From: Candidatus Methanophagaceae archaeon
GTDB taxonomy: Archaea > Halobacteriota > Syntropharchaeia > Alkanophagales > Methanospirareceae
Direction: 5' to 3'
DNA: 32,000 nt
Assembly: GCA_003194425.1 (NCBI GenBank)
Contig: PQXB01000002.1
Span: 30,001-62,000 of the forward strand
Positions within the stretch are counted from its first letter, which is position 1. Each line of letters begins with the position of its first letter. Below, piece by piece: positions 1-26,402 of the stretch. Both the position numbers and the translations under genes were made by a program. The notes under the pieces were generated by a model, which was given only the letters and a program-made list of their open reading frames with translations, did not search any database and was not told where the DNA came from.

Positions 1-1165
1 AGAGCGTCCCGAAGTCGCCCCCAAGGGTGTCGGTCATTCCGTACTCAGGAACAGGGTCGATTTGAATTCCTTTCGGTGCTTCGCCACGCATCTGCTTAAC
101 GACCCAGTAGACCTGCGACGCCCCTGTCGCTCCGATTGGGTGTCCTCTGCCGAGCAGCCCGCCAGACGCGTTTACAGGTATTTTCCCGTCCCTCTCGGTC
201 TGCCCGTCTGCGGTCGCGTCTGCCGCCTCACCCCACCCGAAGAAGCCCATTCCTTCAAGCGCGATTAATTCCGCAATCGTAAAACAGTCGTGAAGTTCGA
301 GCACGTCAATCTCCGAAGGCTCGAGCCCCGCACGCTTAAACGCCATTCTCGCAGAACTCACCCTCGAAGCAGGCTTTGTCAAGTCCCCGCCAGCCATTTT
401 TGAGAGCGCACCGCCCGACCCCTGCCCCGTGCCAAGCACAAAAACAGGCTCGTCCGTGTACTTCCGCGCCTCCTCCGCGGAGCAGAGCACGAGAGCAGCA
501 GCACCGTCTGAGAAAGGGCAGCAGTCCAACAGCGTCAGCGGGTCCGCCACAAACCTCGAATTTACCACTTCCTCCACCTTCAGGTCCCCCATTTTCCCGT
601 AGAACTGCGCCAGCGGGTTTAACGCCCCTTGCCTGTGGTTCTTAACCGAGACGAGTGCCATTTTCTCACGCAGCTCTTCCAGCGGCACGCCGTAATTCTT
701 AGAGTACTGCAACGCCGCCATTCCGAAGACTCCTGGGAAAGTGAGCCCCGCTGGTCCCTCGGTCGGTGCGTGGCACGCCATCGAGAAAGTCCGCGTCGCA
801 AAGAGCGTCCCCATCGTCAACGCCCTCTCTACGCCCCCCGCCAGCACAACATCAAACTCCCCAGCAGCGACCCACATCGCCGCCTCGCGCACTGCAATCG
901 ACGCCGACGCGCACGCTCCCTCGTACCTCGTCGCAGGCACAGGACTCAGCCCGAGCTCGCCAGCAGAGAAGGCTGCGGGCATTACCTGCCCCTCCTCGAA
1001 ACCAGGCAGCGCCGAACCCTGAAACAACGCCTCCACATCCTTCAATTCCACGCCCGCGTCGTCTACCGCCTGCAACGCCGCCTCTGAGAAGAGCTCAAGC
1101 CCCTTCTTCGTCTTCGCTCGCCCGAACTTCGTGTGCCCAACTCCAATTATCGCTACATCCCTCAT
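1..1165 (-). CDS. Thiolase-family protein (archaeal acetyl-CoA C-acetyltransferase / SCP-x-type thiolase); C-terminal part runs off the left edge
   Basis: My own minus-strand translation from ATG (1165..1163) gives MRDVAIIGVGHTKFGRAKTKKGLELFSEAALQAVDDAGVELKDVEALFQGSALPGFEEGQ...YEGACASASIAVREAAMWVAAGEFDVVLAGGVE...ALVSVKNHRQGALNPLAQF. The frame stays open to position 2. It is missing from the ORF track only because it has no stop in the window. The listed + strand ORFs here are P/S/R-rich antisense artefacts. Confidence 0.8.
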   Translation of the reverse strand, partial: MRDVAIIGVGHTKFGRAKTKKGLELFSEAALQAVDDAGVELKDVEALFQGSALPGFEEGQVMPAAFSAGELGLSPVPATRYEGACASASIAVREAAMWVAAGEFDVVLAGGVERALTMGTLFATRTFSMACHAPTEGPAGLTFPGVFGMAALQYSKNYGVPLEELREKMALVSVKNHRQGALNPLAQFYGKMGDLKVEEVVNSRFVADPLTLLDCCPFSDGAAALVLCSAEEARKYTDEPVFVLGTGQGSGGALSKMAGGDLTKPASRVSSARMAFKRAGLEPSEIDVLELHDCFTIAELIALEGMGFFGWGEAADATADGQTERDGKIPVNASGGLLGRGHPIGATGASQVYWVVKQMRGEAPKGIQIDPVPEYGMTDTLGGDFGTL

Positions 1166-6604: not shown

Positions 6605-7618
6605 ATGAAAATAACGATAATCGGCGGGGCAGGAGGAATGGGAAAGTGGTTCGCCGGGTTTTTCAAGGCGAACGGTGCTGAAGTTCGGATCGTGGACAAG
6701 AGCGAGCAGACCGAGGCGGTCGCAAGACAAATCGGCGTGGAATTCTTGAAGACCGACATTTTGGGCGACGAAAAAGAAGAAAAAAAAGAAGAAGGAGAGA
6801 AGGAGGTTGCGGCGACCGAGGTGCTGCTCGTTTCGGTCCCGATTGACTTAACGAGCCGCGTGATTGAGCGAGTGGGACCGAGAATGCCGGCAGGCTCGCT
6901 GCTGATGGATTTAACTTCGGTGAAAAAAGCACCGGTTGCTGCGATGGAACGATTTGCGAGCAGCGGTGTTGAGATTCTCGGCACGCACCCCCTCTTCGGT
7001 CCTTCTGCAAAGAGCCTGCAGGGTCAGACTGTCATTCTCGTGCCTTCAACTTCAAGAAGCGGCTCAAGCGGTTTAGTGAGTTTGAAGGGTTTGAGGGGTT
7101 CGAGGGGTTCGAGGGGTTCGAGGGGTTTGAGGGGTTCGAGGGGTTCGAAATCCGAAAAAATCGCAGAGCTCTTCAAGAGTAAAGGGGCGAGGATTGAAGT
7201 CTTAACTGCGGCGGAGCACGACGAAATAATGGCAGTGGTTCAGGGGCTGACGCATTTTATCCTCATCGCTTTCGGCGTTGCTTTAAAAGACCTCGATTTT
7301 GAGGTCGCACGGGCGAGGCGGTTTATGAACCCGCAGTTCAAAATAATAACCGATTTCGTGGGCAGGCTCCTGCACCAAGACCCGCACCTTTACGCAACAA
7401 TTCAGACGAACTTCGAAATGGGCAGGATTCACGAGGCGTTTTTGACGACTGCCAGCAGGCTGCACGAGTTGGTCTTAGAAGGTAGAGTGGGTGAGTTAGT
7501 AAAAGAAATGCAGGAGGCGAAGAGGCATTTCGGGAACGCCGAGACCGAGCGAGCGTTCGCGGACTCGGAGCGGGTGTTAGAGCAGAAGCTAAAAGAGGGT
7601 GGAAAAAGAAAAAAATGA
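6605..7618 (+). CDS. tyrA: Prephenate dehydrogenase
   Basis: 337 aa. Rossmann motif MKITIIGGAGGMGKWFA, GTHPLFGP, helical C-terminal domain. Insert GLRGSRGSRGSRGLRGSRGS is encoded by a 9-bp repeat. Confidence 0.85.
   Translation: MKITIIGGAGGMGKWFAGFFKANGAEVRIVDKSEQTEAVARQIGVEFLKTDILGDEKEEKKEEGEKEVAATEVLLVSVPIDLTSRVIERVGPRMPAGSLLMDLTSVKKAPVAAMERFASSGVEILGTHPLFGPSAKSLQGQTVILVPSTSRSGSSGLVSLKGLRGSRGSRGSRGLRGSRGSKSEKIAELFKSKGARIEVLTAAEHDEIMAVVQGLTHFILIAFGVALKDLDFEVARARRFMNPQFKIITDFVGRLLHQDPHLYATIQTNFEMGRIHEAFLTTASRLHELVLEGRVGELVKEMQEAKRHFGNAETERAFADSERVLEQKLKEGGKRKK
7084..7147 (+). repeat. 9-bp in-frame tandem repeat (gaggggttc / gaggggttt) x7 inside tyrA
   Basis: Direct reading of 7084-7147. Encodes the (G/L)RGS repeats. 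Confidence 0.9.
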
Positions 7619-8508
7619 GGAGTTTCCTCGAGGAATATTCAAGGCTCGTTGGACTTCTTCTGCTCTCTTTCGTGTTTATTTTCCTTTTTTCAACCCCCTC
7701 AATGATTCTCGCTAAAACGATCACAACGATTGACACCGAGCTCTCGCGTGCGTCCGGGACTGCAACGCCTGTCCGAACGCTGTTGGATTTCGGAAACAAC
7801 GAGCACATTCAGGCTTTTCCGCGGCAGGTCGGCGAGTGGACTGCCGCAAACGATTACAACACGACGCAGGTTGCAGAGAGCCTGGGTGCAGAAGTGGTGC
7901 TCTTGCGTGCCTACAAGCATCCGAAATTCTATCAGCCCGTGATTTTTCTGATTGTGCAGTCCAACGCTCGTTCAAGCTTTCACCCCCCGATCGTCTGCTA
8001 CCCCGCGATGGGCTACGAGATTGAAGAAGAGGGCAAGGCGAAAATAGAGGTGCAGAATTTGAGCTGGGTGGAAAAACCGTTGTACGCTGCCTGGGCGGGG
8101 GAGGGGACTGGCGGTGAGAGGGCGTGGGCGGCGAGCCGAAATTTCAACGACACAATCTCCGCCAAGAAACTCGTCGTCGTAAAGAAAGCAGCGGCAGGCG
8201 AGGTAACCGAGCGACTGGTCGTGCTGTATTTTTATGTAAAAGAGAGCCCTTTTACTTCAGAGAACATTACCTTGGTCCGCGTCTCGGCACTCGCACCCAC
8301 TAAAGGCTCTTACGACGGCGTTCTCGGCGTAACAAAAGAGTTCTTGGGCGAGTCGGTGCCAAGAATGTTTGAACCGCGAAGAGAAGAGGAGCGGGTTATT
8401 TTTATTCTCCTCGATTTAGGTTCTGTGGTGGGTAAAGTGGCGGTTGGCTTGCTGCTCCTTCTCCCGCTGCTGCTCCTCTTTTACCCGCAAATTAAAAGAT
8501 TAATTTAA
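7615..8508 (+). CDS. Membrane-anchored EpsI-like (DUF3485, exosortase/archaeosortase-associated family) protein, putative
   Basis: 297 aa. N-terminal and C-terminal hydrophobic helices. FPRQVGEWTA...LGAEVVLLRAYK...PVIFLIVQSNARSSFHPPIVCYPAMGYEI matches my memory of the EpsI signature (P..iG.W...R.Y...h.P..C.p..G). The start overlaps the tyrA stop (ATGA). Confidence 0.5.
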   Translation: MRSFLEEYSRLVGLLLLSFVFIFLFSTPSMILAKTITTIDTELSRASGTATPVRTLLDFGNNEHIQAFPRQVGEWTAANDYNTTQVAESLGAEVVLLRAYKHPKFYQPVIFLIVQSNARSSFHPPIVCYPAMGYEIEEEGKAKIEVQNLSWVEKPLYAAWAGEGTGGERAWAASRNFNDTISAKKLVVVKKAAAGEVTERLVVLYFYVKESPFTSENITLVRVSALAPTKGSYDGVLGVTKEFLGESVPRMFEPRREEERVIFILLDLGSVVGKVAVGLLLLLPLLLLFYPQIKRLI

Positions 8509-8746: not shown

Positions 8747-9970
8747 TCAACTCCCGCCGTCCCACCGAAACCTCAGCACTGCAGCGATTCCGCCCAACCC
8801 TTTCAGTCGCTTTCCCGGCTCGAACTCAGTGCTGAAGACCACCACTCTCCCCCTCCCGCTCTCCACAGCCTTAAGAATTTTCTCTACCTCACGCCTTTCC
8901 TCCTCCGCCTCCTCCGCCTCCTCACCCTCTTCTTCGCCAGCGCTCAGTTTTTCGTCGCTGACCAGCAGGGTTTCAACCGCGCCGAACTGCAGAGCCTCCC
9001 AGACCTCTTCCTTCCCGTACACCGCCTTTCCGCCCTTCTCTTTACTTATTTCTTGCATTAACTTGTCCAGCAGTCGAACCTCTCGTGTTAGCCGCTCCTC
9101 GCTCTTCAGCCGTTCCACCGCCCCGCGTTTCAGAACCTCCAGGAAGCCCGAAGTTCCGACGCTCGACGCCTGCTCGGTTCTCGCTCGCTTGGCTAACTCC
9201 GCGTCCTTTTCCTTCAAGAACGAGAAAAAGTCGTTCTTCACGAACCCGGGACCTGCGATAATTATTGCCCCTCCTGCTGCTGCTCCTCCTCTGCCTCCTC
9301 TGGATGTGTAAAGAAAAGAGGTCTTCAACTGCTTTAGCACGGCGTTGAAAAAATCGCTTTTACTGCCTGCACCTGCGCTACCCTCTCCTTTCCCGGAGCC
9401 GAGCCTTATCGAGAAGAGTTCGTCTACGCCGTACTGCCTCACGACGCCCGCAACCGCCTCGCCCTCCTCAATCGTAACTACAACAACCTCGGGAGAAGCA
9501 ACCGCCGCCGCTCTCTCCGCCTCTCGCAGCCTCTTCAACTGGTGCTCCTTCCACTCCTTCACGACCGAGAGTTCTGTACCTTGCCCGATGTTTAGGGAGT
9601 GGTAAGACCCCAGTTCTGTCTCCGCTCCCCTCTCCGCCCCCACCTCGATCACGCCTTTCACACGCAGCCTGCGGGAGAACTTGTGAAATTCAACGCTCTC
9701 CACTCTCACGCCCAACCGAACAGGTTTCTTCTCGGTCTTGTCCGGGCGGATTTTGTCGGTCGCTCCTTCTAATCTGCGGTAGGAGAGGGCGAAGACGAGG
9801 TCGCCCGTCTCGATTAAGTGCTTGAGGTGCCACAAGTCGTCCAACGACTCTGGGATTAGCGAAATCTCCCCTGTTTTTCCTCCCCGCCCCTTTTCTCCTC
9901 CCCGCCCCTTTTCTCCTCCGTTCCCCCTTTCTCCTCCTCTCGTTTTTATCCTCTTTTTTAAGACCCGCAT
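8747..9970 (-). CDS. pelA: Pelota (Dom34-like mRNA surveillance / ribosome rescue factor)
   Basis: 407 aa. SLIPESLDDLWHLKHLIETGDLVFA N-domain, eRF1-like middle and C domains. N-terminal insert GGERGNGGEKGRGGEKGRGGKTG comes from an 18-bp repeat at 9873-9935. Confidence 0.9.
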   Translation of the reverse strand: MRVLKKRIKTRGGERGNGGEKGRGGEKGRGGKTGEISLIPESLDDLWHLKHLIETGDLVFALSYRRLEGATDKIRPDKTEKKPVRLGVRVESVEFHKFSRRLRVKGVIEVGAERGAETELGSYHSLNIGQGTELSVVKEWKEHQLKRLREAERAAAVASPEVVVVTIEEGEAVAGVVRQYGVDELFSIRLGSGKGEGSAGAGSKSDFFNAVLKQLKTSFLYTSRGGRGGAAAGGAIIIAGPGFVKNDFFSFLKEKDAELAKRARTEQASSVGTSGFLEVLKRGAVERLKSEERLTREVRLLDKLMQEISKEKGGKAVYGKEEVWEALQFGAVETLLVSDEKLSAGEEEGEEAEEAEEERREVEKILKAVESGRGRVVVFSTEFEPGKRLKGLGGIAAVLRFRWDGGS

Positions 9971-10089
9971 CTTGAGAAGAAGAGATATTTTGTAGCAAAA
10001 AACGCAAAAAAATCAAAAACCTTTTAAACAACATTTTTCTTACATTTTTGTCAAAAGTAAAAATAAAAAATTAGGAGGTGAGGGGAAAA
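9971..10089. promoter_or_regulatory. AT-rich divergent promoter region (pelota <-> cytochrome 1) with TATA-like boxes and a strong SD for cytochrome 1
   Basis: TATA-like ccttttaaaca (about 10019-10031) and aaagtaaaaataaaaaatt (about 10052-10071). GGAGGTG at 10074-10080, 9 nt before ATG 10090. Confidence 0.45.
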
Positions 10090-10908
10090 ATGAACACGAA
10101 CAAATTGGTTTTGTTGGGAGTAGCAGTCGTAGCAATCGGGATATTCGCACTGCCGAGCACGGTCTCGCTCTTCGCAGGTCAGCACGTCTGGTACGACATT
10201 AGCCAACCGGAAAATAATGTTCCGTGTATAAAGTGCCACGCAGATATTTATGGAGAGTTTCTGATGTCGGGTGCTCACCAAACATTAGCTGGCGGAGAGT
10301 CCAGTAATAGCACGAATAGTACTACCTATGATTCAAATAAGGCCTGCGCCGCGTGCCACCGAGTTGACTCTGTTGATTACAAATTCGCAAGTGGAGATGG
10401 CGGCAGCTTCACTCGAGGTAACAAAGCACACGCAGCCGCTACAATCGCGTGTATGGCATGCCATGAATTTGGTTCTACGGCAGAAGACAAGGGACCGGCA
10501 GCGGGAGGATTTGCACAGCCGTCATACGGTGTTGGATTTGAAGGACAACAATACCACTACACCGATGATATGCATAAAGGGGAACACGCAGCACACAACC
10601 CGTTTATTGCACAAGCGATAAACTCAGAGATGCTCGAAGATTCCAACGAGGCGTGCTTAGCCTGCCACACCTACATCCCAGTCAAGATAAACTGGAGCCA
10701 CGCGAGAAGCCTGGAGTTCAACATCGAGCCAGAAATAAATACAACCGACTGGAGCCACGACTGGAACGTAACCGAGTGGGGCATAAATACAAGCAGCTAC
10801 GCCAATGCAACAGTCTGGGGAAACACAACAGGATATGGAAACACGACTTACTACAAAAACTGGCCAGGCGACATAGACGAGATATACGAGAACGAAAACA
10901 GCGATTGA
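10090..10908 (+). CDS. Tetrahaem c-type cytochrome, secreted or membrane-anchored, sequon-rich
   Basis: 4 CxxCH (CIKCH, CAACH, CMACH, CLACH). N-terminal hydrophobic segment LVLLGVAVVAIGIFALPSTVSLFAGQHVWYD. 9 N-x-S/T sequons, 7 of them in the last ~75 aa. ATG 10090 is preferred over the track's GTG at 10078 because of SD spacing. Confidence 0.9.
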   Translation: MNTNKLVLLGVAVVAIGIFALPSTVSLFAGQHVWYDISQPENNVPCIKCHADIYGEFLMSGAHQTLAGGESSNSTNSTTYDSNKACAACHRVDSVDYKFASGDGGSFTRGNKAHAAATIACMACHEFGSTAEDKGPAAGGFAQPSYGVGFEGQQYHYTDDMHKGEHAAHNPFIAQAINSEMLEDSNEACLACHTYIPVKINWSHARSLEFNIEPEINTTDWSHDWNVTEWGINTSSYANATVWGNTTGYGNTTYYKNWPGDIDEIYENENSD

Positions 10909-10928
10909 GCAGCAGCAGTGCAAGACGA

Positions 10929-10988
10929 AGGTAACCCTTCCCTTTCTTCTCTTCGGGGCTGGGGTTACCTACTTTTTTATTTTTTTAG
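10929..10988 (+). terminator. Stem-loop plus T-run downstream of cytochrome 1
   Basis: Perfect 9-bp inverted repeat aggtaaccc (10929-10937) / gggttacct (10962-10970), followed by acttttttatttttttag. Confidence 0.55.
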
Positions 10989-11042
10989 TTTTAACACACA
11001 AAATAAACACACAAAACAAAAAAAGAGCAAGAAAGAGCCAAA

Positions 11043-11810
11043 ATGCAAGCCTTCGCAGAAGCGGTAATATTAAGCCTCGTGGTCAGTGTGTTCGTAGCAT
11101 CTCTCTTGTTCTTCTTCTACTCGACTGCAGTAAACGGCACCGAACTGCCTCTCCGTCTCTACACCCAAGTCAAGAGAAAATACCGCGAGCATTCAAGGAA
11201 GAAGAGAGTAAAAGAGCGGCTCGAAGAATTCAAGACCGCCTCGGGCAGCAGACCGTCCCTTCTCGTCTCTTCGCTCCTCTTCTCGCTCTTCCTGCTCGTC
11301 GTCTTTGCTCTACTATTTAAACTCGCGTTCTTCTCCGCCGTCACCTCGGACAGCATGCGACCCACATTTGAACGCGGTGACCTCGTGGCAATGCAGAAGA
11401 TTCAGACCACGCCAAAAGAGGGCGACATAATTATGTTTGAGCGACCTGATTTCCTGCTTCCTTTTATTCATCGCGTCGTCGCAGTGACCGAGGAGAAGGG
11501 AGGCAAGCGGAAAGTGAGGACAAAAGGGGACGCTTGCGAGAGAGTAGATCCTTGGGTTCTGCCCGAGGGAGCGGTCGAGGCGAAAGCCGTGCAGTTAGGC
11601 GGACGAGCAGTGGTTCTAAAAGATGTCGGCAATTATTTCATCCTCGACGCCCGAGAGAGGCGAATTGGCAGGTACGGACTGGAATACACTTTTATGAAGA
11701 ACATTTTTTTTATTTTGCGGATGTACGGCTACGCGTTCTGCGTCCTTGCAATCATTGGTTATTTGGTCTTGACGATCAGGGAGATGCAGACGAGGAAGAG
11801 GAGGGGGTAA
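11043..11810 (+). CDS. Signal peptidase I, ER/archaeal (SEC11/SipW-like, Ser-His) type, with an extra N-terminal TM plus basic loop and a C-terminal TM
   Basis: 255 aa. Box B SDSMRPTF, box C GDLV, box D HRVV (His rather than the bacterial Lys), box E TKGDACERVD. Hydrophobic segments at about aa 5-27, 71-97 and 215-243. Basic loop KRKYREHSRKKRVKERL. Confidence 0.85.
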   Translation: MQAFAEAVILSLVVSVFVASLLFFFYSTAVNGTELPLRLYTQVKRKYREHSRKKRVKERLEEFKTASGSRPSLLVSSLLFSLFLLVVFALLFKLAFFSAVTSDSMRPTFERGDLVAMQKIQTTPKEGDIIMFERPDFLLPFIHRVVAVTEEKGGKRKVRTKGDACERVDPWVLPEGAVEAKAVQLGGRAVVLKDVGNYFILDARERRIGRYGLEYTFMKNIFFILRMYGYAFCVLAIIGYLVLTIREMQTRKRRG

Positions 11811-11814
11811 AAAG

Positions 11815-12600
11815 ATGAAAGGATTCTTCTTAATCGCGGTTGCAGTAGTCGCGGTCGGCATCTTCGTGCTTCCGAGCACGGTCTCGTTCTTCACCGAGCA
11901 GCACAACTGGTACGACCTTTCTCCAGCGACACATGTGCAAGCGAGCTGGGGAAGAAATGATGTGCCGTGCGAGAAATGTCATACTGATGTTGAAGGACAG
12001 ATGCAGAGTCCTGAGAACGGTGCGCACCGCGATTTAACCTGCGCTGATTGTCACAGGGCTCCTTTTACCGAATATAATTACGCTCGCGGGAACTACATTT
12101 GCGTAAACAAATTTGGAATCCCCAAATGGCAAGGCACAAAACCAGGTAAAGAAGCACACGCCGCATCCGTGGTCGCGTGTACGGACTGTCACACTGCTAA
12201 TGACACCGAGATACACCCGCGTGACCCTGAATATGTTACAAGGTGTAACGACTGCCATCACTCTCCGCCGAAAGAAATTGAAGATAAATGGAAATGGATG
12301 ATCGCAGGCGGTTTCGGACTGACCGGTAGAACGAACGACACAGGCGAGAAGGAGGCACACGAGAAGTTCCTGCACGACGCGATTGAGAACGCCTCCTTGA
12401 AAGGTTCGAACGAGGCTTGCATCGCCTGCCACACTGCTACCTCGGTTACAGTCACATATTTAGTGCCGCAAGGCTACAAAATTAAGTCAAGCAGGAAGTG
12501 GGAGGGCGACGAGGCTTGCGGCGAGTGGGAAGTTAATTTCTCGTACTGCAACTTTACCCGCGTGGAAGGAGCGAGCGGAGGAGCGAGCGGCGATGATTAA
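11815..12600 (+). CDS. Pentahaem c-type cytochrome, paralogue of cytochrome 1
   Basis: 5 CxxCH (CEKCH, CADCH, CTDCH, CNDCH, CIACH). N-terminus FLIAVAVVAVGIFVLPSTVSFFTEQHNWYD. Starts 4 nt after the peptidase stop. Confidence 0.9.
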   Translation: MKGFFLIAVAVVAVGIFVLPSTVSFFTEQHNWYDLSPATHVQASWGRNDVPCEKCHTDVEGQMQSPENGAHRDLTCADCHRAPFTEYNYARGNYICVNKFGIPKWQGTKPGKEAHAASVVACTDCHTANDTEIHPRDPEYVTRCNDCHHSPPKEIEDKWKWMIAGGFGLTGRTNDTGEKEAHEKFLHDAIENASLKGSNEACIACHTATSVTVTYLVPQGYKIKSSRKWEGDEACGEWEVNFSYCNFTRVEGASGGASGDD

Positions 12601-13744
12601 AATCAAATACAAATACAAGGTCGCGGTGCTCGTCTTGGTTGTTCTTACTGCGTCTTTAGCCTGTTCTGTCTTCTCTTCTTCTCTCTTTGAGGGGCAGCAC
12701 ACTTGGTACGACCTCTCTGCGCCCGAAAACGATGTGTCCTGCTACAAGTGCCATAAAAATATCAGAGCAGAGTTTGACGAGACGCCCTCGACGCCCCTGC
12801 CTCCGGGAAGCGGTGTACCGCACAAGGACAAATCGTGTGAGTACTGCCACAGGAGCGAGCCGGGCGTAACCTACGCGAACGGCTCTGGTAAGTACTCGGA
12901 GCCTGGTGAAGAAGCCCACGCCGCCTCTGTTCCCTTGTGCCAGCAGTGCCACGAGCACGAGAGCAAAGACCTCGCGGCTGCAGATGAGTCGCACAAGCCG
13001 TTGAACCGGGGTGGAGGGAGTGGCTCTGCCGCAGAGTCTAACGAGGCTTGCGTCTTGTGCCACACGGGCTTTGACAAGAGCATTGACTTTACGAGACCGC
13101 TCTATGTGGAGTACGAGATTAAGAATGTCAGCGGAACTTGGTTAGTTCATAATTTCAACCTCGGTCCGAGCAGCACCGCCACAGTAAACCTGACCCCACC
13201 CGGCGAGAGGCACACTTGGAAGAACGCGTCCGCGGTCAACTGCTTTGACTGCCACTCCGACATCAAGAACGCACTCAAGAACGGTGGGCACGTGCCGAGC
13301 AGTGGAAAAACTCTTTCAGGCACCGCAGTTTCAGGACACAAAGGCAGGCGACACAACTTTAGTAGAACCAGCACCGGCGTGAGCGTCGAAGACTGTAAGC
13401 CCTGCCACCGACCGAGTTTGTCTGACTTTGGAGCAGGCTACAACCACTTGGAAGCACGGCTCGACTACCACGCCGCGACGACCGAGCACTGCTACGACTG
13501 CCACTACAACGGAACTGCAACCGCGTTCAACGAAACTGGCTCAGGCTGTGTAGAGTGCCACAACATTTTACGAACTCCTGGAAACCACACCGAAATATTG
13601 AACAGCACCTTCTCCCAGAATTTCTGCGGGTACAAAATTGACAAGGTCTGCGTCGGCTGCCACCTGCCTGGTCCTGGCACCAGCGTGCCGTTTTCCGACA
13701 GGCACTTCACGATTTACACCGAGCCGAACGCCACAATTTTATGA
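12593..13744 (+). CDS. Nonahaem c-type cytochrome: shared tetrahaem core plus a 5-haem C-terminal extension
   Basis: 9 CxxCH (CYKCH, CEYCH, CQQCH, CVLCH, CFDCH, CKPCH, CYDCH, CVECH, CVGCH). N-terminus VAVLVLVVLTASLACSVFSSSLFEGQHTWYD. 8-nt overlap with the upstream cytochrome (gcgATGATTAA). 10 sequons. Confidence 0.9.
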   Translation: MIKIKYKYKVAVLVLVVLTASLACSVFSSSLFEGQHTWYDLSAPENDVSCYKCHKNIRAEFDETPSTPLPPGSGVPHKDKSCEYCHRSEPGVTYANGSGKYSEPGEEAHAASVPLCQQCHEHESKDLAAADESHKPLNRGGGSGSAAESNEACVLCHTGFDKSIDFTRPLYVEYEIKNVSGTWLVHNFNLGPSSTATVNLTPPGERHTWKNASAVNCFDCHSDIKNALKNGGHVPSSGKTLSGTAVSGHKGRRHNFSRTSTGVSVEDCKPCHRPSLSDFGAGYNHLEARLDYHAATTEHCYDCHYNGTATAFNETGSGCVECHNILRTPGNHTEILNSTFSQNFCGYKIDKVCVGCHLPGPGTSVPFSDRHFTIYTEPNATIL

Positions 13745-13805: not shown

Positions 13806-15173
13806 TTAGGCGAACATTACCCCCATTTCTTTGCTCTTCGCACTCAGACCCAGACACGACCGCTGCTCCTCCCCCAGAATCTTTTTTATCGCGTGCACGA
13901 ATTCTGCAGTTCCCACTGCACTCTTGTTCCTTTTCACAGCGAGCATTCCCGCCTCTGTGGAGATTGCTTTTATCTCAGCACCCGTGGCGTTCTCGGTAAG
14001 CGCCGCTAAATTCTCAAAATTCACGCCCTTCTCCAATTTCATCCCTGCCTTGTGCGTGTGAATTCTGAATATTTCCAGCCTCGCTTCCCGGTCTGGCACA
14101 GGAATTTCAATGACGCGGTCGAACCTCCCAGGGCGGAGCAGAGCAGGGTCAAGAATGTCAGGTCTGTTCGTCGCCCCAATTATCCGAACCTCCCCTCTCG
14201 GGTCGAAGCCGTCAATCTCGGCTAAAAGCTGCAACATCGTTCGCTGCACTTCTCGCTCGCCCGAAGTCCCGTCCTCGGTTCTGCGAGCCGCTACCGCGTC
14301 CAACTCGTCAATAAAAAGAATCGAAGGTGCTTTCTCCTTCGCCAGCGCAAAAAGTTCCCGCACCAGCCTCGCACCTTCGCCGATGTATTTCTGCACCAAC
14401 TCCGAGCCGACGACGCGGATAAAAGTGGCAGAAGTCCGATTCGCAACAGCCTTCGCAAGCAGCGTCTTTCCAGTGCCGGGCAGACCTGTAAGAAGCACAG
14501 CCTTCGGCGGCACCACTCCCACTCGCTCAAACCGCTCGGGCGCAGTCAGCGGCAACTCCACCACTTCCCGCACTTCTTCTACCTGCTCCCTCAGCCCCCC
14601 AATCATCTTGTAGTCCACGCACGGCGTTTCAATCACTTCCATTCCGTGCACCGACGGGTCCTTCGCAGAGGGGAGCACGCTAACCACCGCCAGCGACTGC
14701 TGACTCATTCCGACTTGCGCGCCGGGTGCGAGTTCTCTTGGGTCTACGAGTTGGGGAGCGTAAGTCACGACGAAGCGCGGTCCTGTGCTGCTCCTCACGA
14801 CCACTCGGTTGTCTGCTTCTGCTCCGTCGGTCCCCTCAATTCTCTCCACAACCGTGCCAACGATCAACGGCGGAGAAGACAACTTCTCTAACTCGGTCTG
14901 CAGCTTTTTTATCTCCCGCTCGTACCGCACCCGCATACTTTCGTAATATCGCCACTCTCGCTCTATTTTCCCCAACCGCGCCCTCAACTTGTAGTTCGCC
15001 TCCTCCAACTGCCGCATTTTATCCTGCAAGTGCCCGAAGTAGTTCTCGCCACACGGTTTGCCGCACGATTCTCCGCTGCCTCTCGTGCCTCCGCTGCCTC
15101 TCGTGCCTGCACCTGCACTTGCTTCTGCACCTGTGCTTGAGTTTATGCTTGTGCTTGCTTTCATCTTGCCCAA
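13806..15173 (-). CDS. pan: Proteasome-activating nucleotidase (AAA+ ATPase, Rpt-like)
   Basis: 455 aa. Coiled-coil N-terminus, OB region, Walker A GLPGTGKTLLAKAVA, Walker B ILFIDELDA, GATNRPDILDPALLRPGRFDR. Low-complexity N-terminus with an 18-bp repeat at 15072-15107. Confidence 0.92.
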   Translation of the reverse strand: MGKMKASTSINSSTGAEASAGAGTRGSGGTRGSGESCGKPCGENYFGHLQDKMRQLEEANYKLRARLGKIEREWRYYESMRVRYEREIKKLQTELEKLSSPPLIVGTVVERIEGTDGAEADNRVVVRSSTGPRFVVTYAPQLVDPRELAPGAQVGMSQQSLAVVSVLPSAKDPSVHGMEVIETPCVDYKMIGGLREQVEEVREVVELPLTAPERFERVGVVPPKAVLLTGLPGTGKTLLAKAVANRTSATFIRVVGSELVQKYIGEGARLVRELFALAKEKAPSILFIDELDAVAARRTEDGTSGEREVQRTMLQLLAEIDGFDPRGEVRIIGATNRPDILDPALLRPGRFDRVIEIPVPDREARLEIFRIHTHKAGMKLEKGVNFENLAALTENATGAEIKAISTEAGMLAVKRNKSAVGTAEFVHAIKKILGEEQRSCLGLSAKSKEMGVMFA

Positions 15174-15209: not shown

Positions 15210-15689
15210 ATGACGCAATGTGAAATCTGCGGTGCGGAAATAAAAGGAGGAAGAGCGGGGCTGTGCATAAAAATCGGCTCCTCTGAACTGCGGGTTTGCA
15301 AGTCGTGTGCTCGGCACGGAACAGTCGTGGAGACGGCGGAGACGGAAGCGGAGAGGAGAGGCGGAGGCGGAAGCGGAGGCGGAAGAGACAAGAAACAGCA
15401 GACAGCAGTGGTAGGAGCAGGAAAGAGAGCAGAAGCGGAGAGAAGGCAGGACTCAAGGTTGTACGAGAAAATGGAGCACGATTTAGACGCGGAGGCGGAA
15501 CTCGCGGAGGACTACGGGCAGCGGATAAAAAAGGCGAGGGAGAAAGCGGGGCTGAAGCAAGCCGCGTTCGCACAAAAAATAAACGAGAAGCAGTCGTTGC
15601 TGCGGAAGATTGAGAGAGAGGAGGTGCTGCCCAGCGAGGCAGTGCGACGGAAAATAGAGCGTTCTCTCAATATTTCACTCTCTGAATAA
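15210..15689 (+). CDS. mbf1: Archaeal multiprotein bridging factor 1 (Zn-ribbon plus HTH_3)
   Basis: 159 aa. N-terminal CEICG...CKSC zinc ribbon. C-terminal HTH DYGQRIKKAREKAGLKQAAFAQKINEKQSLLRKIERE. G/E/R-rich linker. Confidence 0.85.
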   Translation: MTQCEICGAEIKGGRAGLCIKIGSSELRVCKSCARHGTVVETAETEAERRGGGGSGGGRDKKQQTAVVGAGKRAEAERRQDSRLYEKMEHDLDAEAELAEDYGQRIKKAREKAGLKQAAFAQKINEKQSLLRKIEREEVLPSEAVRRKIERSLNISLSE

Positions 15690-16475
15690 CTCGCTCTCCG
15701 AGAGTTCCGAGCCCGCTAAATGCCAGCGGTCGCAGTAAGACAGGAACACCTGCAGTGCCTCTTGGTACGCTGCTTCAGAGAATTCTCTCCACTCCACCCC
15801 CGAGACCGCGGTCTTGGTCTTGACATTCTTGGTCTTAACATTTTTGTCTTTGTCCAGCCGAAGCACGCCTAACCCCTGAACCCGCTCGCCGCTTCTTTCT
15901 TCGTAAGCCCACCTGTACGCACTTACTTGAAGGAGGTGCTCGGGGCGAATTATCCGCGAGGTCTTTAGGTCCACGACGTACAGCCGACCGTCCAAGTACC
16001 CGAGAAGGTCCAAAGATCCTGCGTAACCCTGCTCGCTCCAGACACCTAACTCAACCCCAACAGCCTCAAACCCAGTCGCCGCCTCCCACTCGAGAAACGC
16101 AGAAAACGGGTTCTTAATCTCCTCGTCTTCCACTTCAACTTCTTCCACCTCAACTTCTTCCACCTCAACTTCTTCCACCTCAACTTCTCGCTCCTCCCTT
16201 CCTGCCTCTTCCTCTTGTCTTGTCTTGAGTTTGAGGTTGAGGTAGCGTTCGATTGCCTTGTGCACCCGCGTTCCGAGGTCAGCAGCGTGGTCAGAGATTT
16301 CACGCCACCTCGGCTCCCTCTCCTTCCACGCCTCCAGTCCAGGCTTTCTAACGCTGTCCAAAATTGTCGTAACGCTCGGCAGAATTCCAATCGGGGTCCT
16401 GTAAAAATGCTTGGATGCGGTTTTGATCAGTTCTATCTCACCTTTCTTGCCTCTCTCTGCTCTCTCGTTTTTCAT
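15675..16475 (-). CDS. PD-(D/E)XK (RecB/Cas4/lambda-exonuclease-like) nuclease family protein
   Basis: Internal ATG (16475..16473; MKNERAERGKKGEIELIK...) is preferred over the 327-aa track ORF, whose N-terminal 61 aa overlap the divergent rimI region. Motifs GSLDLLGY...LYVVDLKTS (D...D/ExK) and QVSAY (QxxxY). EEVEV x4 acidic insert. Confidence 0.65.
   Translation of the reverse strand: MKNERAERGKKGEIELIKTASKHFYRTPIGILPSVTTILDSVRKPGLEAWKEREPRWREISDHAADLGTRVHKAIERYLNLKLKTRQEEEAGREEREVEVEEVEVEEVEVEEVEVEDEEIKNPFSAFLEWEAATGFEAVGVELGVWSEQGYAGSLDLLGYLDGRLYVVDLKTSRIIRPEHLLQVSAYRWAYEERSGERVQGLGVLRLDKDKNVKTKNVKTKTAVSGVEWREFSEAAYQEALQVFLSYCDRWHLAGSELSESELFRE
16127..16186 (-). repeat. 15-bp in-frame tandem repeat x4 (cttccacctcaactt on +) inside the nuclease gene
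   Basis: Units at 16127, 16142, 16157 and 16172. Encodes (EVEVE)n. Confidence 0.9.
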
Positions 16476-16521
16476 CGTCTCTCGTTCCTTAATCAATAAA
16501 TTAAAAAGATTTAAAGAAAAT

Positions 16522-17040
16522 ATGGGCAATTTTATGAGACGGAGGAAGGCAAGGAAAGAGGAGGAGGTAAGCGTAAGGAACGCAGCAGGTTCGGATTTAC
16601 GGGAAATTGTGAGGCTGTGGCAGACAAACATAAAAACTGCAAACACGGCGCCAGACATCGCCGACTTCTTTTACTCGTTCAAAATATATTTTTTCGTCGC
16701 TGTTTGTTCTGGCAGTGCTTGTTCTGGCAGTGCTGACACTACCAACAAAATCGTCGGCTTCGTCGGTGGCACCGTAAGAAACGGGAGCGGGCACGACGCC
16801 CACATTTCAGGAATCGCAGTGGAGAAGGAGCACCGAAGGAGGGGAATTGGAACGCGGCTGCTAACGACGGTGGAGCGAGAATTTCGGGCAGACGGGTTCG
16901 GAAAAGTCACGCTTGAGGTCAGGAAGAGCAACAGGGCTGCGATAAATTTCTACGAGAAACAGGGCTACAAACGGTCGTATTTTGTAACAGGCTACTACGC
17001 AGACGGCGAGGACGCAATCGTCTGCGAGAAGAGGCTTTGA
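16522..17040 (+). CDS. rimI: GNAT N-acetyltransferase, RimI/Ard1-like (ribosomal protein / N-terminal acetyltransferase)
   Basis: Start ATG 16522 (MGNFMRRRKA...) is preferred over the track start at 16411. Acetyl-CoA motif EHRRRGIGTRLL. NRAAINFYEKQGYK. 15-bp repeat insert (CSGSA x2) at about 16706-16735. Confidence 0.8.
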   Translation: MGNFMRRRKARKEEEVSVRNAAGSDLREIVRLWQTNIKTANTAPDIADFFYSFKIYFFVAVCSGSACSGSADTTNKIVGFVGGTVRNGSGHDAHISGIAVEKEHRRRGIGTRLLTTVEREFRADGFGKVTLEVRKSNRAAINFYEKQGYKRSYFVTGYYADGEDAIVCEKRL

Positions 17041-17947: not shown

Positions 17948-18346
17948 TTACACGATCATCGTAGCCGCGGAGGCGATTGTAGAGAACCGCTCGACCGCTT
18001 CCCGCGCAACCGGTCCCCTTATCTCCGACGCCTTTAGAATCCCTTTCTCGTCTACAATAACCGCAGCGTTGTCCTCGAACTTTATTCGCATCCCCGAAGG
18101 ACGCCTGTACTCCTTTCGCTGCCGCACTACCACCGCCTTCACTATTTGCTTCTTTATCTCCGGCCTGCCTTTCTTCACTGTTGCCACCACCATATCCGCA
18201 ACCCCCGCCCTTGGGTACCGGTTCTTCACGCCGCGGTAGCCCTTCACCGCGATTATCTGCAGCACCTTCGCACCGCTGTTGTCCACGCAGTCCAACCGCG
18301 TGCCTGTCTGCAACGCCTTCGTCACCTTCGCTCTTACTCCTTTCAT
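17948..18346 (-). CDS. rpl14: 50S ribosomal protein uL14
   Basis: 132 aa. [22 protein letters not shown]...[14 protein letters not shown]. Confidence 0.95.
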
Positions 18347-18410
18347 ATTTACTGTCGCCTGCCTAATTACAATTGTTTGTTTAGCATTTATAAACTAAAC
18401 TCCTTCATCT

Positions 18411-18446
18411 TTCTTCCAAGAATTTCTTCCAAGAATTTCTTCCAAG
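18411..18446. repeat. 13-nt tandem repeat (ttcttccaagaat) x2.8 between the 2TM gene and rpl14
   Basis: Units at 18411, 18424 and 18437 (partial). Confidence 0.85.
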
Positions 18447-18493
18447 TCGACATATCTCAGCTCTAACATCTTTTAAATCAAAGCAAGTAGATC

Positions 18494-18823
18494 CTATGTA
18501 GATTTTTTTAGTTTCCGTGATTTCTTCATCTCTGATTTTTTCATCTCTCTTACCCTATATTCAGCTTTAGCTTCTCTTTCCTTAAGTTCTTTTTCTAACC
18601 AACGAACGCCAAATAGGTAATGCATTGATATTCCAATTCCCCAACCTATAAGCGGGTAAAAGAACCAAATCGCCTCTGGAGAATATATGAAGTTAATGGC
18701 TATCAACATGGCATTAACCAACACATACACCACTAAATGGGCTAAAAAGCCTCGCTTTTCCTCTTCTTCCCTTTCTTCTCTGTACGCTTTTTTATATCTT
18801 TCTAATGATATTTCTTGTGCCAT
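18494..18823 (-). CDS. 2TM-domain small membrane protein (PF13239-like), low-GC insert in the r-protein operon
   Basis: 109 aa. KRGFLAHLVVYVLVNAMLIAINFIY...WFFYPLIGWGIGISMHYLFG fits my memory of the 2TM domain pattern. Charged coiled N- and C-terminal tails. Confidence 0.7.
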   Translation of the reverse strand: MAQEISLERYKKAYREEREEEEKRGFLAHLVVYVLVNAMLIAINFIYSPEAIWFFYPLIGWGIGISMHYLFGVRWLEKELKEREAKAEYRVREMKKSEMKKSRKLKKST

Positions 18824-18828
18824 TTTTC

Positions 18829-18854
18829 ACCTTCTTTCATAACCTTCTTTCATA
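18829..18854 (-). repeat. 13-nt tandem duplication (accttctttcata x2 on +) directly upstream of the 2TM ATG
   Basis: Units at 18829-18841 and 18842-18854. The mRNA sense is tatgaaagaaggt x2, and each unit carries an SD-like gaaggt. Confidence 0.8.
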
Positions 18855-18960
18855 AATTATGTTATTTTCCTTTTTCCTTTTTAATCTTTTTTCTAAGGAC
18901 GTCCAGAAGGTATGTAAATCTAATCTTTTTGAACCATACCAAAAATCCCAATTATCAATC

Positions 18961-19287
18961 TTATCGAAACTTCTTCTCCACGACCACAAAGCTCTTCGTC
19001 TTGCTCAGCGGTCGGCACTCCGCAATCTTCACCACATCCCCTCGCCTCGCGTTTATGCAGGGCGGGTTGTGTGCGTGAATTTTCGACCGCCGCTTCTCGT
19101 ACCGCTCGTACTTCCGCACCTTCTTCAAATAAGACCGCAAGACAACGACCGTCTTCGCCGCTCGGTCGCTCACCACAACGCCTTCCAAAATCTGCCCCCT
19201 CACCGGCAGCCTGCCGTGAAAAGGGCAGTTCTCGTCCTCGCAATCCTTTGTCGGAACTCTTACATCTATTCCAATGTCAGTTTTCAT
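18961..19287 (-). CDS. rps17: 30S ribosomal protein uS17
   Basis: 108 aa. [25 protein letters not shown]...[10 protein letters not shown]...[18 protein letters not shown]. Confidence 0.95.
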
Positions 19288-19292
19288 TTTCC

Positions 19293-19574
19293 TTAACCCC
19301 TCCTTTTTATCCTGTCCTCTGGTCTCGAAACGAGCAAGTCCCCGCTAACTCGCACTCGCACTCGCACCCGCTCCTCTCCGTCTAAATCAAAAACAAAGAC
19401 ATTTCCCGCCTTTGCCACCTTCTTCTCTCTCTCGTCCTCAAGAACAAGCATATTCCGTGTCTCGTCTACCACCGCCCCCCGCAGCCCCCGTAGATCTCTG
19501 TTACTGCTCTCTTCCACTTCTGCCCGCAACCCAATCAGCTCGTGTTGCAAGAAATTCTCTGCCGTTATTTTCAT
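19293..19574 (-). CDS. rnp1: RNase P protein component 1 (Rpp29/Pop4)
   Basis: 93 aa. [36 protein letters not shown]. Confidence 0.85.
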
Positions 19575-25250: not shown

Positions 25251-26402
25251 ATGGATTTCATCGACCAGATAAAAGCACTGTCTGATCAGATTTCTAAAGA
25301 ATTGGAGCATTTAGAGACGGAGGAGGCGACGAAGCACGCCCTTGTTCTGCCGTTCATTAACGCGCTGGGTTACAATGTCTTTAATCCTTGGGAGGTGGTG
25401 CCGGAATTCACCTGCGATGTCGGGAAAAAGAAGGGTGAGAAAGTGGATTACGCGTTGATGAAAGCCGGAAAACCAATTATGCTTTTTAAGTGCAAGTCTG
25501 CGAACGCTGACCTGGGAAAGGAACACGCAGACCAACTTTACAGATATTTCTCGGTTACCGAGGTAAAAGTCGGGGTTCTCACGAACGGGGTCGTCTACAA
25601 ATTTTACAGCGACCTCGAAGAGACGAACAAAATGGACGCAAAACCGTTTCTTGAACTTGACCTGCTTGACTTGAAGGAGGTGGTTGTAGAGGAGTTGAAA
25701 CGGTTCAGGAAGGAGTCTTTTGACTTGGGTGCGGTTGTCTCTGCGGCGAGCGAGTTGAAATACTCGAAAGAAATAAAGAGGATTCTGGGAGAGGAACTCA
25801 ATTCGCCCTCCGACGAGTTTGTTAAGTTCTTTACGAAGCAGGTTTACTCGGGAAGGGTGACAAAAACGGCTCTGGAAAAGTTTAGGGAAATTATTCACCA
25901 AGCGTTTAAACAGTTCGTCAACGAAAAGATCAGCGACCGACTGAAATCGGCGTTGGAGAAGGAGCAAGAGCAAGAAGGTGCTGCAGGTGTAGCAGAAGAG
26001 CGCGGTGCGGAGGGCGGGAGGAGTGAAGAAAAGAAAGAGAAAGAAGAGGGTCTTGTCACGACCGAAGAGGAAGTAGAGGGTTTTTTTATTGTCCGTGCGA
26101 TTTTGCGTGAGACTACTGAGCCCGAGAGAGTTATTTTGAAGGACCGGAAAAACTACTGCAACGTTCTGCTGGACAACAATATTAGAAGACCGATTTGCAG
26201 GTTCTACTTCAACACCCGGCAGAAATATGTAAGTTTCTTTGACGCGGAGAAAAAGGAGGAGAAGGTGGCGGTAGAGAACTTGAGTGAGATTTACAACTAC
26301 GCTGAGAGGCTTAAAGCAACGGTCGACTACTACAAGGGCTACGAGGGAAGTGGCGTACCTGAAGCTAGTCCAGAATCAGAAAAAGAAAACAAAAACATTT
26401 AA
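25251..26402 (+). CDS. Type I restriction enzyme R N-terminal (HSDR_N-like, PD-(D/E)XK fold) domain protein of unknown function
   Basis: 383 aa. ETEEATKHALVLPFINALGYNVFNPWEVVPEF...GEKVDYALMKAGKPIMLFKCKS...QLYRYF...VGVLTNGVVYKFY. C-terminal module EEEVEGFFIVRAILRE...NYCNVLLDNNIRRPICRFYFN recalls a widespread standalone family. No methylase or specificity genes nearby. Confidence 0.7.
   Translation: MDFIDQIKALSDQISKELEHLETEEATKHALVLPFINALGYNVFNPWEVVPEFTCDVGKKKGEKVDYALMKAGKPIMLFKCKSANADLGKEHADQLYRYFSVTEVKVGVLTNGVVYKFYSDLEETNKMDAKPFLELDLLDLKEVVVEELKRFRKESFDLGAVVSAASELKYSKEIKRILGEELNSPSDEFVKFFTKQVYSGRVTKTALEKFREIIHQAFKQFVNEKISDRLKSALEKEQEQEGAAGVAEERGAEGGRSEEKKEKEEGLVTTEEEVEGFFIVRAILRETTEPERVILKDRKNYCNVLLDNNIRRPICRFYFNTRQKYVSFFDAEKKEEKVAVENLSEIYNYAERLKATVDYYKGYEGSGVPEASPESEKENKNI

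Follow-up and report, generated by a model that had tools for sequence, protein, structure and literature searches.

Why is a signal peptidase encoded among multihaem cytochromes, and are those cytochromes its substrates? The question is raised by a four-gene module in a 32-kb stretch of DNA (contig PQXB01000002.1; hereafter the window) from the anaerobic methanotrophic archaea (ANME) of the ANME-1 lineage (Methanophagales), in which a type I signal peptidase (SPase I) is encoded between the cytochrome genes that we call CytA, CytB and CytC. ANME-1 archaea hand electrons to partner bacteria and in this way account for much of the methane consumption in marine sediments. The giant S-layer cytochromes known from ANME-2 are, to our knowledge, missing in them, which makes the small cytochromes the main wire candidates in this lineage. 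The initial annotation of the window regarded the peptidase as the private processing enzyme of the three cytochromes. On balance we favour, as probable, a reading in which the module serves extracellular electron transfer and its specialised Sec11-type peptidase processes cytochromes of the AvECN type, named after the Archaeoglobus veneficus extracellular cytochrome nanowire.

The reference for the cytochromes is PDB 8E5G, the cryo-electron microscopy structure of AvECN (UniProt F2KMU8). CytA aligned to it with an E-value of 1.5e-68 (residues 5-264 versus chain residues 1-256), with the four haem sites in register and 49% identity to AvECN over the full length. An AlphaFold2 (AF2) model of CytA was of moderate confidence (predicted local distance difference test, pLDDT, 67), and in a Foldseek search with this model 8e5g was the sole PDB match at E ≤ 0.001 (E 3e-13, template-modelling scores 0.53/0.63). 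On this alignment evidence CytA is an AvECN/MmcX-type tetrahaem cytochrome and an orthologue-level homologue of AvECN. It carries nine N-glycosylation sequons, mainly in the C-terminal part. CytB (E 8.8e-23, partial match) and CytC (E 4.9e-24, N-terminal ~120 amino acids) also matched 8E5G, mainly in the initial ~120 residues and in the region of the last haem. Since all three proteins match 8E5G and one another, they are paralogues, as the initial annotation had proposed; their homology to the AvECN nanowire had gone unrecognised there.

Members of the AvECN/MmcX family have been reported from ANME-1, ANME-2, Syntropharchaeales and Archaeoglobales, and expression of one of them, MmcX of Methanocellales Met12, allowed Shewanella to take up electrons (PMC11176372). 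In the text available from Chadwick et al. 2022 (PLoS Biol, PMC9012536), a widespread group of small multihaem cytochromes, including 4-haem proteins of the ANME-1 genomes GB37 and GB60, is placed among the most highly transcribed ANME genes; this group is probably the AvECN/MmcX family. A separate observation concerns A. veneficus itself (CP002588), where AvECN (L003:10001-10789) and its pentahaem paralogue (L003:10961-11779) share a C-terminal stretch of ~80 amino acids (CIACHTYVPVKINWTHKVSLEF...NDASNWPGW) that is identical except for one difference, while their N-terminal halves have drifted apart, a pattern that suggests recent gene conversion.

The peptidase, identical to PXF50407.1, scored above the cutoff for both TIGR02228 (sigpep_I_arch; 60.3 bits, cutoff 51.85) and PF10502 (38.6 bits, cutoff 22.9), and contains the motifs SDSMRP and HRV. 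With a profile of 49 family sequences, human SEC11C (5e-14) and SEC11A were the only strong sequence matches in the PDB; the alignment paired SDSM with SGSM, HRV with HRV and GDA...D with GDNN..D. The nucleophile S104 is kept in 48 of the 49 sequences and H143, D163 and D169 in every one. An AF2 model with pLDDT 84-93 at residues 100-190 gave, in Foldseek, SEC11C (7p2q_A, E 8e-5) and SEC11A (7p2p_A) as the best matches, followed in third place by Streptococcus pyogenes SipA (4n31). The protein is thus, by family score, fold and catalytic residues, an ER/archaeal-type (S26B, Sec11-type) signal peptidase I predicted to cleave Sec signal peptides, which agrees with the Ser/His enzyme recognised at first.

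Compared with the canonical enzyme, the family has conserved additions: a first transmembrane segment, a long basic helix, a second transmembrane segment, the segment GNYFILD...YGxEYxFxKN and a C-terminal transmembrane segment. Hydrophobic stretches were found at residues 1-32, 69-103 and 220-248, and the loop at 28-75 has 13 Lys/Arg versus 5 Asp/Glu. The extra N-terminal transmembrane segment and strongly basic loop singled out in the initial annotation are therefore family traits. The label SipW-like given to the enzyme did not hold, as identity with the SipW equivalog is ruled out by a score of 33.7 bits against NF046067, whose cutoff is 190.

The relatives of the peptidase were collected by a pattern-seeded scan of one genome per GTDB species, which returned 75 loci. 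Scored with a hidden Markov model (HMM) of the catalytic core and C-terminal segment, members reached at least 118 bits and every other S26 protein at most 76 bits. By this profile score the peptidase belongs to a distinct clade of ~250-residue proteins, represented in 47 GTDB species genomes. All of these are archaeal and come from ANME-1, ANME-2/Methanosarcinales, Syntrophoarchaeum, Methanocellales, Thermoplasmata/Methanomassiliicoccales, Hydrothermarchaeota and Archaeoglobales.

The clade keeps company with cytochromes. All 29 loci from outside the Archaeoglobales have an open reading frame (ORF) with at least two CxxCH motifs on the same strand within 300 nt of the peptidase gene, and in 27 of them an adjoining ORF carries at least three haems. 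The order seen in the window, with the peptidase gene followed by a 4-6-haem and an 8-10-haem gene, recurs in 14 loci; the gene in the position of CytB then bears the N-terminal motif described below, and that in the position of CytC encodes 360-437 amino acids. Another arrangement is found in the ANME-1 loci L011 and L013-L017, whose peptidases are 53-55% identical to that of the window. Here motif-bearing 3-5-haem cytochromes lie upstream of the peptidase; on the downstream side are a short ORF with 2-3 haems, the gene of a polytopic membrane protein and a 4-haem gene, with a CcmF-like gene 4-6 kb downstream in L012-L014 and L016. The L011/L013-L017 arrangement matches the cluster of Meyerdierks et al. 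2010 as described in the available text of Chadwick et al. 2022.

A second companion of the clade is a polytopic membrane protein of ~270 amino acids that belongs to no Pfam family. It accompanies the clade peptidase in 36 of the 47 GTDB genomes, Archaeoglobales included, and in a wider set it was found beside the peptidase in 38 of 53 loci examined, spread over ANME, Methanocellales, Thermoplasmata, Hydrothermarchaeota and Archaeoglobales. In the last group its gene is convergent with that of the peptidase, at a distance of 1-20 nt. An HMM search for this partner was negative in the 32-kb window and in L003, L018 and L019. This protein probably corresponds to the gene that Chadwick et al. 2022 (PMC9012536) label '8x TMH', and is far more widely distributed than the text available from that paper reports.

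The cytochromes next to clade peptidases share an N-terminal motif. Following the signal peptide's hydrophobic core, 64 unique cytochromes neighbouring clade peptidases display the near-invariant consensus LPxTVS/LFxGQHxWYD. Numbering from the Phe as position 0, this residue and the His at +4 are present in 64/64. Positions with one dominant residue are -6 (P 46/64), -1 (L 50/64), +2 (G 49/64) and +3 (Q 52/64), while others vary within narrow limits: T 33, V 15, A 8 and S 7 at -4, V 34 and I 13 at -3, S 50, T 7 and A 7 at -2 (S/T/A in 64/64), and W 41 and F 16 at +6. Among 76 orthologues of CytA, whose alignment columns are on average 34% identical, no other segment outside the haem sites is as conserved as the motif: P22, G30, Q31, H32, W34 and Y35 are invariant and L21, T24, S26, L27 and F28 are at least 90% conserved.

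Only small or neutral residues occur at -4 and -2, and Pro stands at -6, the classical -3/-1 pattern of signal peptidase substrates; in Hydrothermarchaeota the variant A-M-A/K-F gives a textbook AxA site in the same register. Because the motif fits this rule, cleavage is predicted to fall between motif positions -2 and -1 (TVS/LF), which would give the mature N-termini LFAGQH for CytA, FFTEQH for CytB and LFEGQH for CytC. The N-terminal 45-49 amino acids of CytA, CytB, CytC and AvECN, for the first three of which a comparison with TIGR04088 had been proposed, matched neither this nor any other NCBIfam family at E ≤ 10, in a search whose HMMER filters may lose very weak matches. In the 8E5G chain 220 of the 262 AvECN residues are modelled, and in known cytochrome filaments 0, 1 or 3 His residues ligate haems of adjacent subunits, with subunit interfaces illustrated for OmcZ, OmcS and F2KMU8. 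For these reasons the invariant motif His (H32 in CytA) is a plausible haem ligand, possibly an inter-subunit one. We name LPSTVSLFAGQH as the stretch for a motif swap, alongside CytA P22, S26, F28 and H32.

A related signal-peptide ending was seen in other proteins near the peptidase. Directly upstream of the clade peptidase, L001:7462-7920 (+) encodes a protein with a signal peptide ending in ALPNxVxL, followed by repeats rich in Trp, Glu, Lys and Pro (PPEWKE...), and the ORFs found at this place in L008, L006 and L012 likewise have such endings and repeats. In L008 the ALPNxVxL-type N-terminal part belongs to a 4-haem protein, and some of the repeats are joined to a 4-haem domain. The ALPNxVxL-ending proteins lack the F..QH portion of the cytochrome motif.

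The clade peptidase stands beside a housekeeping enzyme. The ANME-2-like contig L018 contains a second S26 gene of 185 codons with the signature SGSM...HRA...GDNN; with this canonical SPase as query, more than 1000 relatives were found, many of them in Methanophagales, Syntrophoarchaeum and A. veneficus (P0310 in the latter). A conspecific Methanophagales metagenome-assembled genome (MAG), GCA_026133975.1, carries both kinds. Its contig JAOQIL010000003.1 is 96.6% identical to the window DNA, and the assembly encodes both a near-identical clade peptidase (MCW7071480.1) and, on JAOQIL010000008.1, a canonical SPase I of 170 amino acids (P0352, MCW7071957.1). The latter has neither the clade architecture nor a dedicated membrane partner. 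The neighbourhood of the canonical SPase was alike in 16 contigs, with DUF373, the SPase, ribosomal protein L10e/L16 and isocitrate/isopropylmalate dehydrogenase in this order. The accession pair PXF50407.1/PXF51703.1 suggests that both SPases are also present in the window's own MAG. The proposal of a private peptidase had been said to fall if this were the sole SPase I of the genome and orthologous cytochromes elsewhere never neighboured a peptidase; GCA_026133975.1 holds both enzymes, and in 29/29 non-Archaeoglobales genomes cytochromes adjoin the peptidase.

In the reading that we favour, Sec would export CytA, CytB and CytC with a signal peptide ending in the shared motif. The cut after the small residue at -2 would then be made by the accessory peptidase, either in place of the ordinary 170-residue SPase I or alongside it. 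This cut would free the haem-loaded cytochrome from the membrane and expose an N-terminal LFxGQH arm, whose invariant His would serve as a haem axial ligand. That the clade peptidase is what cleaves the cytochromes, and any exclusivity in doing so, we infer. Synteny, motif and second SPase together support well a dedication of the peptidase to cytochromes, and in this the initial proposal of a private enzyme finds backing from comparative genomics; a strict dependence of the cytochromes on it is doubtful.

Several observations weigh against the specialised role, and part of them would be expected if the peptidase were a redundant general SPase I lacking substrate preference, kept as extra capacity for heavy cytochrome export through gene dosage or co-regulation. 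Since the predicted cut site follows the general -3/-1 rule, it is acceptable to any SPase I, and the cytochromes could be cut by the housekeeping enzyme. MmcX restored electron uptake in Shewanella oneidensis, a host without the clade peptidase (PMC11176372). AvECN orthologues are often solitary, with no clade peptidase within 10 kb, as in A. veneficus and the long contigs L106, L107 and L108. For A. veneficus the pattern-based genome scan listed no clade member, but it also missed Geoglobus ahangari, a proven carrier, so that absence from the list means nothing. Redundancy is nevertheless an unlikely explanation, since the clade has an architecture of its own that the 170-residue enzyme lacks (extra transmembrane segment, basic helix, GNYFILD...YGxEYxF and usually the membrane partner). 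Moreover, the sequence of signal-peptide c-regions is normally not conserved, whereas the c-region found here hardly varies in several orders and classes of archaea, and a similar ALPNxVxL ending also occurs in some non-cytochrome neighbours. The conservation of QHxWYD may, on the other side, simply reflect the fold, all motif bearers being homologous, and AF2 places CytA residues 21-40, where the motif lies, at pLDDT below 50. The unit had also been called self-contained, which is too strong because the window has neither Ccm genes nor the ~270-residue membrane partner.

The gene neighbourhoods of the Archaeoglobales likewise count against a role tied to cytochromes. In ~18 loci of this type a CARDB-domain protein and an 87-residue membrane protein precede the peptidase, and no same-strand cytochrome occurs within 300 nt of it. 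Such loci could mean that the true substrates are other surface proteins, the CARDB protein or further envelope proteins, and that cytochromes are mere neighbours in a cell-surface gene island. We hold this to be very improbable: the N-terminus of the G. ahangari CARDB protein has no LF.GQH-type motif, that genome retains four motif-bearing cytochromes within 7 kb of the peptidase, and the other 29 genomes have no intervening CARDB-type protein and show translational coupling of cytochromes to the peptidase. The peptidase might also act mainly as an assembly or anchoring factor, a membrane platform that with its ~270-residue partner keeps hold of the N-terminus of the cytochrome and aids polymerisation or haem loading. 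The conserved partner, extra transmembrane segment and basic helix suggest a complex, SipA ranks third among the fold matches, and the genes were first read as membrane anchors by Meyerdierks et al. 2010, according to the available text of Chadwick et al. 2022 (PMC9012536). This, too, seems improbable, if a little less so, because the catalytic Ser, His and both Asp residues are conserved in 48-49 of 49 members, unlike in SipA, which argues that proteolysis is under selection; in addition, the window module keeps the peptidase yet lacks the partner.

Beyond a specialised processing peptidase, one may tentatively go further and regard the clade peptidase, usually with its ~270-residue partner, as the dedicated biogenesis machinery of archaeal AvECN-type nanowires, a proposal that, with all the following steps taken together, we consider unlikely. 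During haem loading by Ccm, the N-terminal helix would keep the precursor tethered, and cleavage at TVS/LF would then release the LFxGQH arm. The His of this arm would become a ligand to a haem in the adjacent subunit; removal of the signal peptide would in this way license polymerisation, as a haem-coordination analogue of the donor-strand assembly of SipW/TasA. The 5-haem and 9-haem paralogues would form a cell-proximal base or adaptor feeding the CytA filament.

The features of the module, with its flanking genes and examples of the membrane partner, are compiled in the table.

Table. Position and description of features of the cytochrome-peptidase module, and of the ~270-residue membrane protein at other loci (positions in nt of the window unless residues or a locus are given).
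Feature	Position	Strand	Description
CytA	10090-10908 (alternative ORF start 10078)	+	272 amino acids; 4 CxxCH at residues 46, 86, 121, 189
S26B signal peptidase I	11043-11810	+	255 amino acids; 0 CxxCH; cytochrome-linked clade
CytB	11815-12600	+	261 amino acids; 5 CxxCH at residues 52, 76, 122, 144, 202
CytC	12593-13744	+	383 amino acids; 9 CxxCH; AvECN-like N-terminal part, then 5-haem extension
Shine-Dalgarno-like site AGGAGGTG	10073-10080	+	9 nt 5' of CytA ATG (10090); direct reading of sequence
Hairpin and T-run	10929-10992 (hairpin 10929-10970, T-run 10973-10986)	+	by folding; 3' of CytA stop
CytA motif LPSTVS/LFAGQHVWYD	10150-10197 (residues 21-36)	+	signal-peptide end and predicted mature start; predicted cut S26/L27
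CytB motif LPSTVS/FFTEQHNWYD	11869-11916 (residues 19-34)	+	
CytC motif SVFSSS/LFEGQHTWYD	12665-12712 (residues 25-40)	+	
Peptidase catalytic codons	S104 11352-11354, H143 11469-11471, D163 11529-11531, D169 11547-11549	+	
Peptidase layout	residues 2-30, 35-66, 73-91, 95-190		transmembrane segment 1, basic helix, transmembrane segment 2, catalytic beta-domain
Peptidase C-terminal part	residues 212-254 (transmembrane segment)		conserved GNYFILD...YGxEYxFxKN segment, then C-terminal transmembrane segment
Pelota	8747-9970	-	TIGR00111, 328 bits
PAN	13806-15173	-	TIGR01242, 546 bits
~270-residue membrane protein	L013:3369-4184	+	35 further loci besides the three listed
~270-residue membrane protein	L022:12747-13586	+	
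~270-residue membrane protein	L004:7638-8402	-	

The gene layout reads as two transcription units, a strongly signalled monocistronic CytA and a translationally coupled operon of peptidase, CytB and CytC, because CytA has its own Shine-Dalgarno-like site and a hairpin followed by a U-run, and the other three genes follow one another with a 4-nt gap and then an 8-nt overlap. Direct folding of the region downstream of CytA gave a hairpin of -21.2 kcal/mol (z = -2.5), after which UACUUUUUUAUUUUUUU follows; the 24-nt loop of this hairpin caused the terminator rule of our scan to overlook it. Hairpin and T-run are likely the terminator of the CytA transcript. The gap lies between the peptidase stop codon (TAA, 11808-11810) and the ATG of CytB, with GGAGGGGG just 5' of that ATG, and the overlap arises since the ATG of CytC lies within the end of CytB, ahead of its TAA at 12598-12600. 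The GGAGG-like sites of both CytB and CytC are located inside the preceding genes. A sigma-70 promoter scan, which has little meaning in archaeal DNA, gave nothing above shuffle expectation. Across the six frames of the window, CxxCH occurs in no ORF of at least 60 amino acids other than CytA, CytB and CytC, which means that their 18 motifs are no chance pattern. Gene coordinates, the 4/5/9 CxxCH counts, Shine-Dalgarno site, hairpin with T-run, gap and overlap of the initial annotation were all reproduced, and its assignment of the flanking genes to Pelota and PAN was borne out by the family scores.

The remaining window is core chromosome, including a topoisomerase, a ribosomal-protein operon and FtsZ. 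From its position between two housekeeping genes, the initial annotation took the module for what looks like an inserted cassette, and at most it may be one. At the module the GC content shows only a mild dip (0.47-0.51 versus ~0.55), and among the loci compared no other clade-peptidase locus occupies the Pelota/PAN position. A number of further observations were made along the window. At 7615-8508 (+) a protein of 297 amino acids with hydrophobic N- and C-termini and weak similarity to EpsI/DUF3485 (exosortase-associated) is encoded; its start overlaps the stop of the prephenate dehydrogenase gene (6605-7618) by 4 nt, and no archaeosortase or exosortase was seen nearby. Charged low-complexity inserts occur at the N-termini of Pelota (GGERGNGGEKGRGGEKGRGGKTGE) and PAN (GAEASAGAGTRGSGGTRGSGES), in aMBF1 (RRGGGGSGGGRDKK; 15210-15689, +) and in a Cas4-like nuclease (EVEVEEVEVEEVEVEEVEVEDEE and KNVKTKNVKTK; 15675-16658, -), and short in-frame repeats in housekeeping proteins appear to be a genome-wide habit. 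This Cas4-like PD-(D/E)xK nuclease, a weak match to TIGR00372 (22 bits), and an HSDR_N-domain protein at 25251-26402 (+) both lie amid core genes, with no CRISPR or restriction-system context seen around them. Beside the ribosomal-protein operon, the region 18001-19500 has a GC content of 0.42-0.45 and a strongly negative GC skew; an ORF of 145 codons (18859-19296) gave no Pfam match.

The Archaeoglobales arrangement, seen in G. ahangari (L004:4879-7648) and in ~18 loci of this type, deserves a description of its own. The unit encodes a CARDB surface protein of 612 amino acids, an 87-residue membrane protein resembling helix-turn-helix proteins and, as its last gene, the peptidase, and a 6-haem cytochrome is transcribed divergently upstream. 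In G. ahangari an AvECN-like gene of 264 codons is followed by genes for cytochromes of 230 and 398 amino acids that overlap by 4 nt.

What the comparison adds is a testable handle on archaeal nanowire biogenesis: a peptidase clade, its conserved membrane partner, a cognate motif and the bond predicted to be cleaved. It gives a point of entry into the release and assembly of archaeal cytochrome nanowires, and the findings may help in producing such nanowires heterologously. Nothing is overturned; rather, a hypothesis published in 2022 (Chadwick et al.) is sharpened.

The initial annotation knew of no described system organised in this way, but Chadwick et al. 2022 (PMC9012536) had described one. 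The text available from that paper reports a signal peptidase in cytochrome clusters of ANME, Syntrophoarchaeum, Geoglobus and Ferroglobus, proposes that it cleaves cytochrome signal peptides and notes its absence from cytochrome-free ANME-1; the cluster was first shown for ANME-1 by Meyerdierks et al. 2010. The presence of the peptidase in ANME cytochrome clusters, its proposed role and its co-absence with cytochromes are thus published, as is the AvECN/MmcX family in ANME-1 elsewhere (PMC11176372). The cluster of Chadwick et al. resembles the module in that an S26 enzyme is encoded within a multihaem-cytochrome cluster; it differs in having the membrane protein partner and CcmF nearby, both of which the window lacks, whereas the window has a peptidase/5-haem/9-haem operon beside an AvECN orthologue. 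The available text of Chadwick et al. 2022 contains neither the AvECN homology of the neighbours nor the LPxTVS/LFxGQHxWYD motif nor the separate housekeeping SPase, and the clade as defined here extends beyond it to Methanocellales, Thermoplasmata/Methanomassiliicoccales and Hydrothermarchaeota. In the searchable literature we found no account of AvECN paralogues as the immediate partners of the peptidase, the near-invariant cognate motif with its predicted cleavage bond, the conserved trio of peptidase, small and large cytochrome, an explicit second housekeeping SPase, or the clade and its membrane partner in Methanocellales, Thermoplasmata and Hydrothermarchaeota.

With AvECN, CytA shares the four CxxCH motifs and the N-terminal motif, whereas the likeness of CytB and CytC is confined to the N-terminal part and the region of the last haem, and both have additional haems. 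The filament was seen for the A. veneficus protein; CytA of ANME-1 may form one as well. A 5-haem (pentahaem) paralogue of 272 amino acids is encoded directly downstream of AvECN in A. veneficus, but, unlike in the module described here, no clade peptidase lies within 10 kb.

Processing enzymes of surface polymers provide the other comparisons. Bacillus subtilis SipW is an ER-type Ser-His S26 enzyme with a C-terminal transmembrane segment, an extra paralogue beside the housekeeping SPases, and is encoded in the operon of the secreted polymer-forming proteins TasA and TapA, which share a distinctive signal-peptide end. All these traits have their likeness in the module. The peptidase here is not the SipW equivalog and has the extra N-terminal transmembrane segment and basic helix; its neighbours are haem proteins and not TasA/camelysin folds, with no match to TIGR04088. 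In S. pyogenes the signal-peptidase homologue SipA/LepA (PDB 4N31), which is without catalytic residues, is needed for pilus polymerisation. The S26 fold, of which SipA was the third best match, and the location of the gene in a surface-polymer locus are common to both, but the catalytic residues missing in SipA are conserved in the clade peptidase. In Geobacter sulfurreducens the subtilisin-like protease OzpA trims OmcZ-L to OmcZ-S. OzpA is no signal peptidase and is unrelated in sequence, but the concept is the same, that of a dedicated protease acting before a multihaem cytochrome polymerises.

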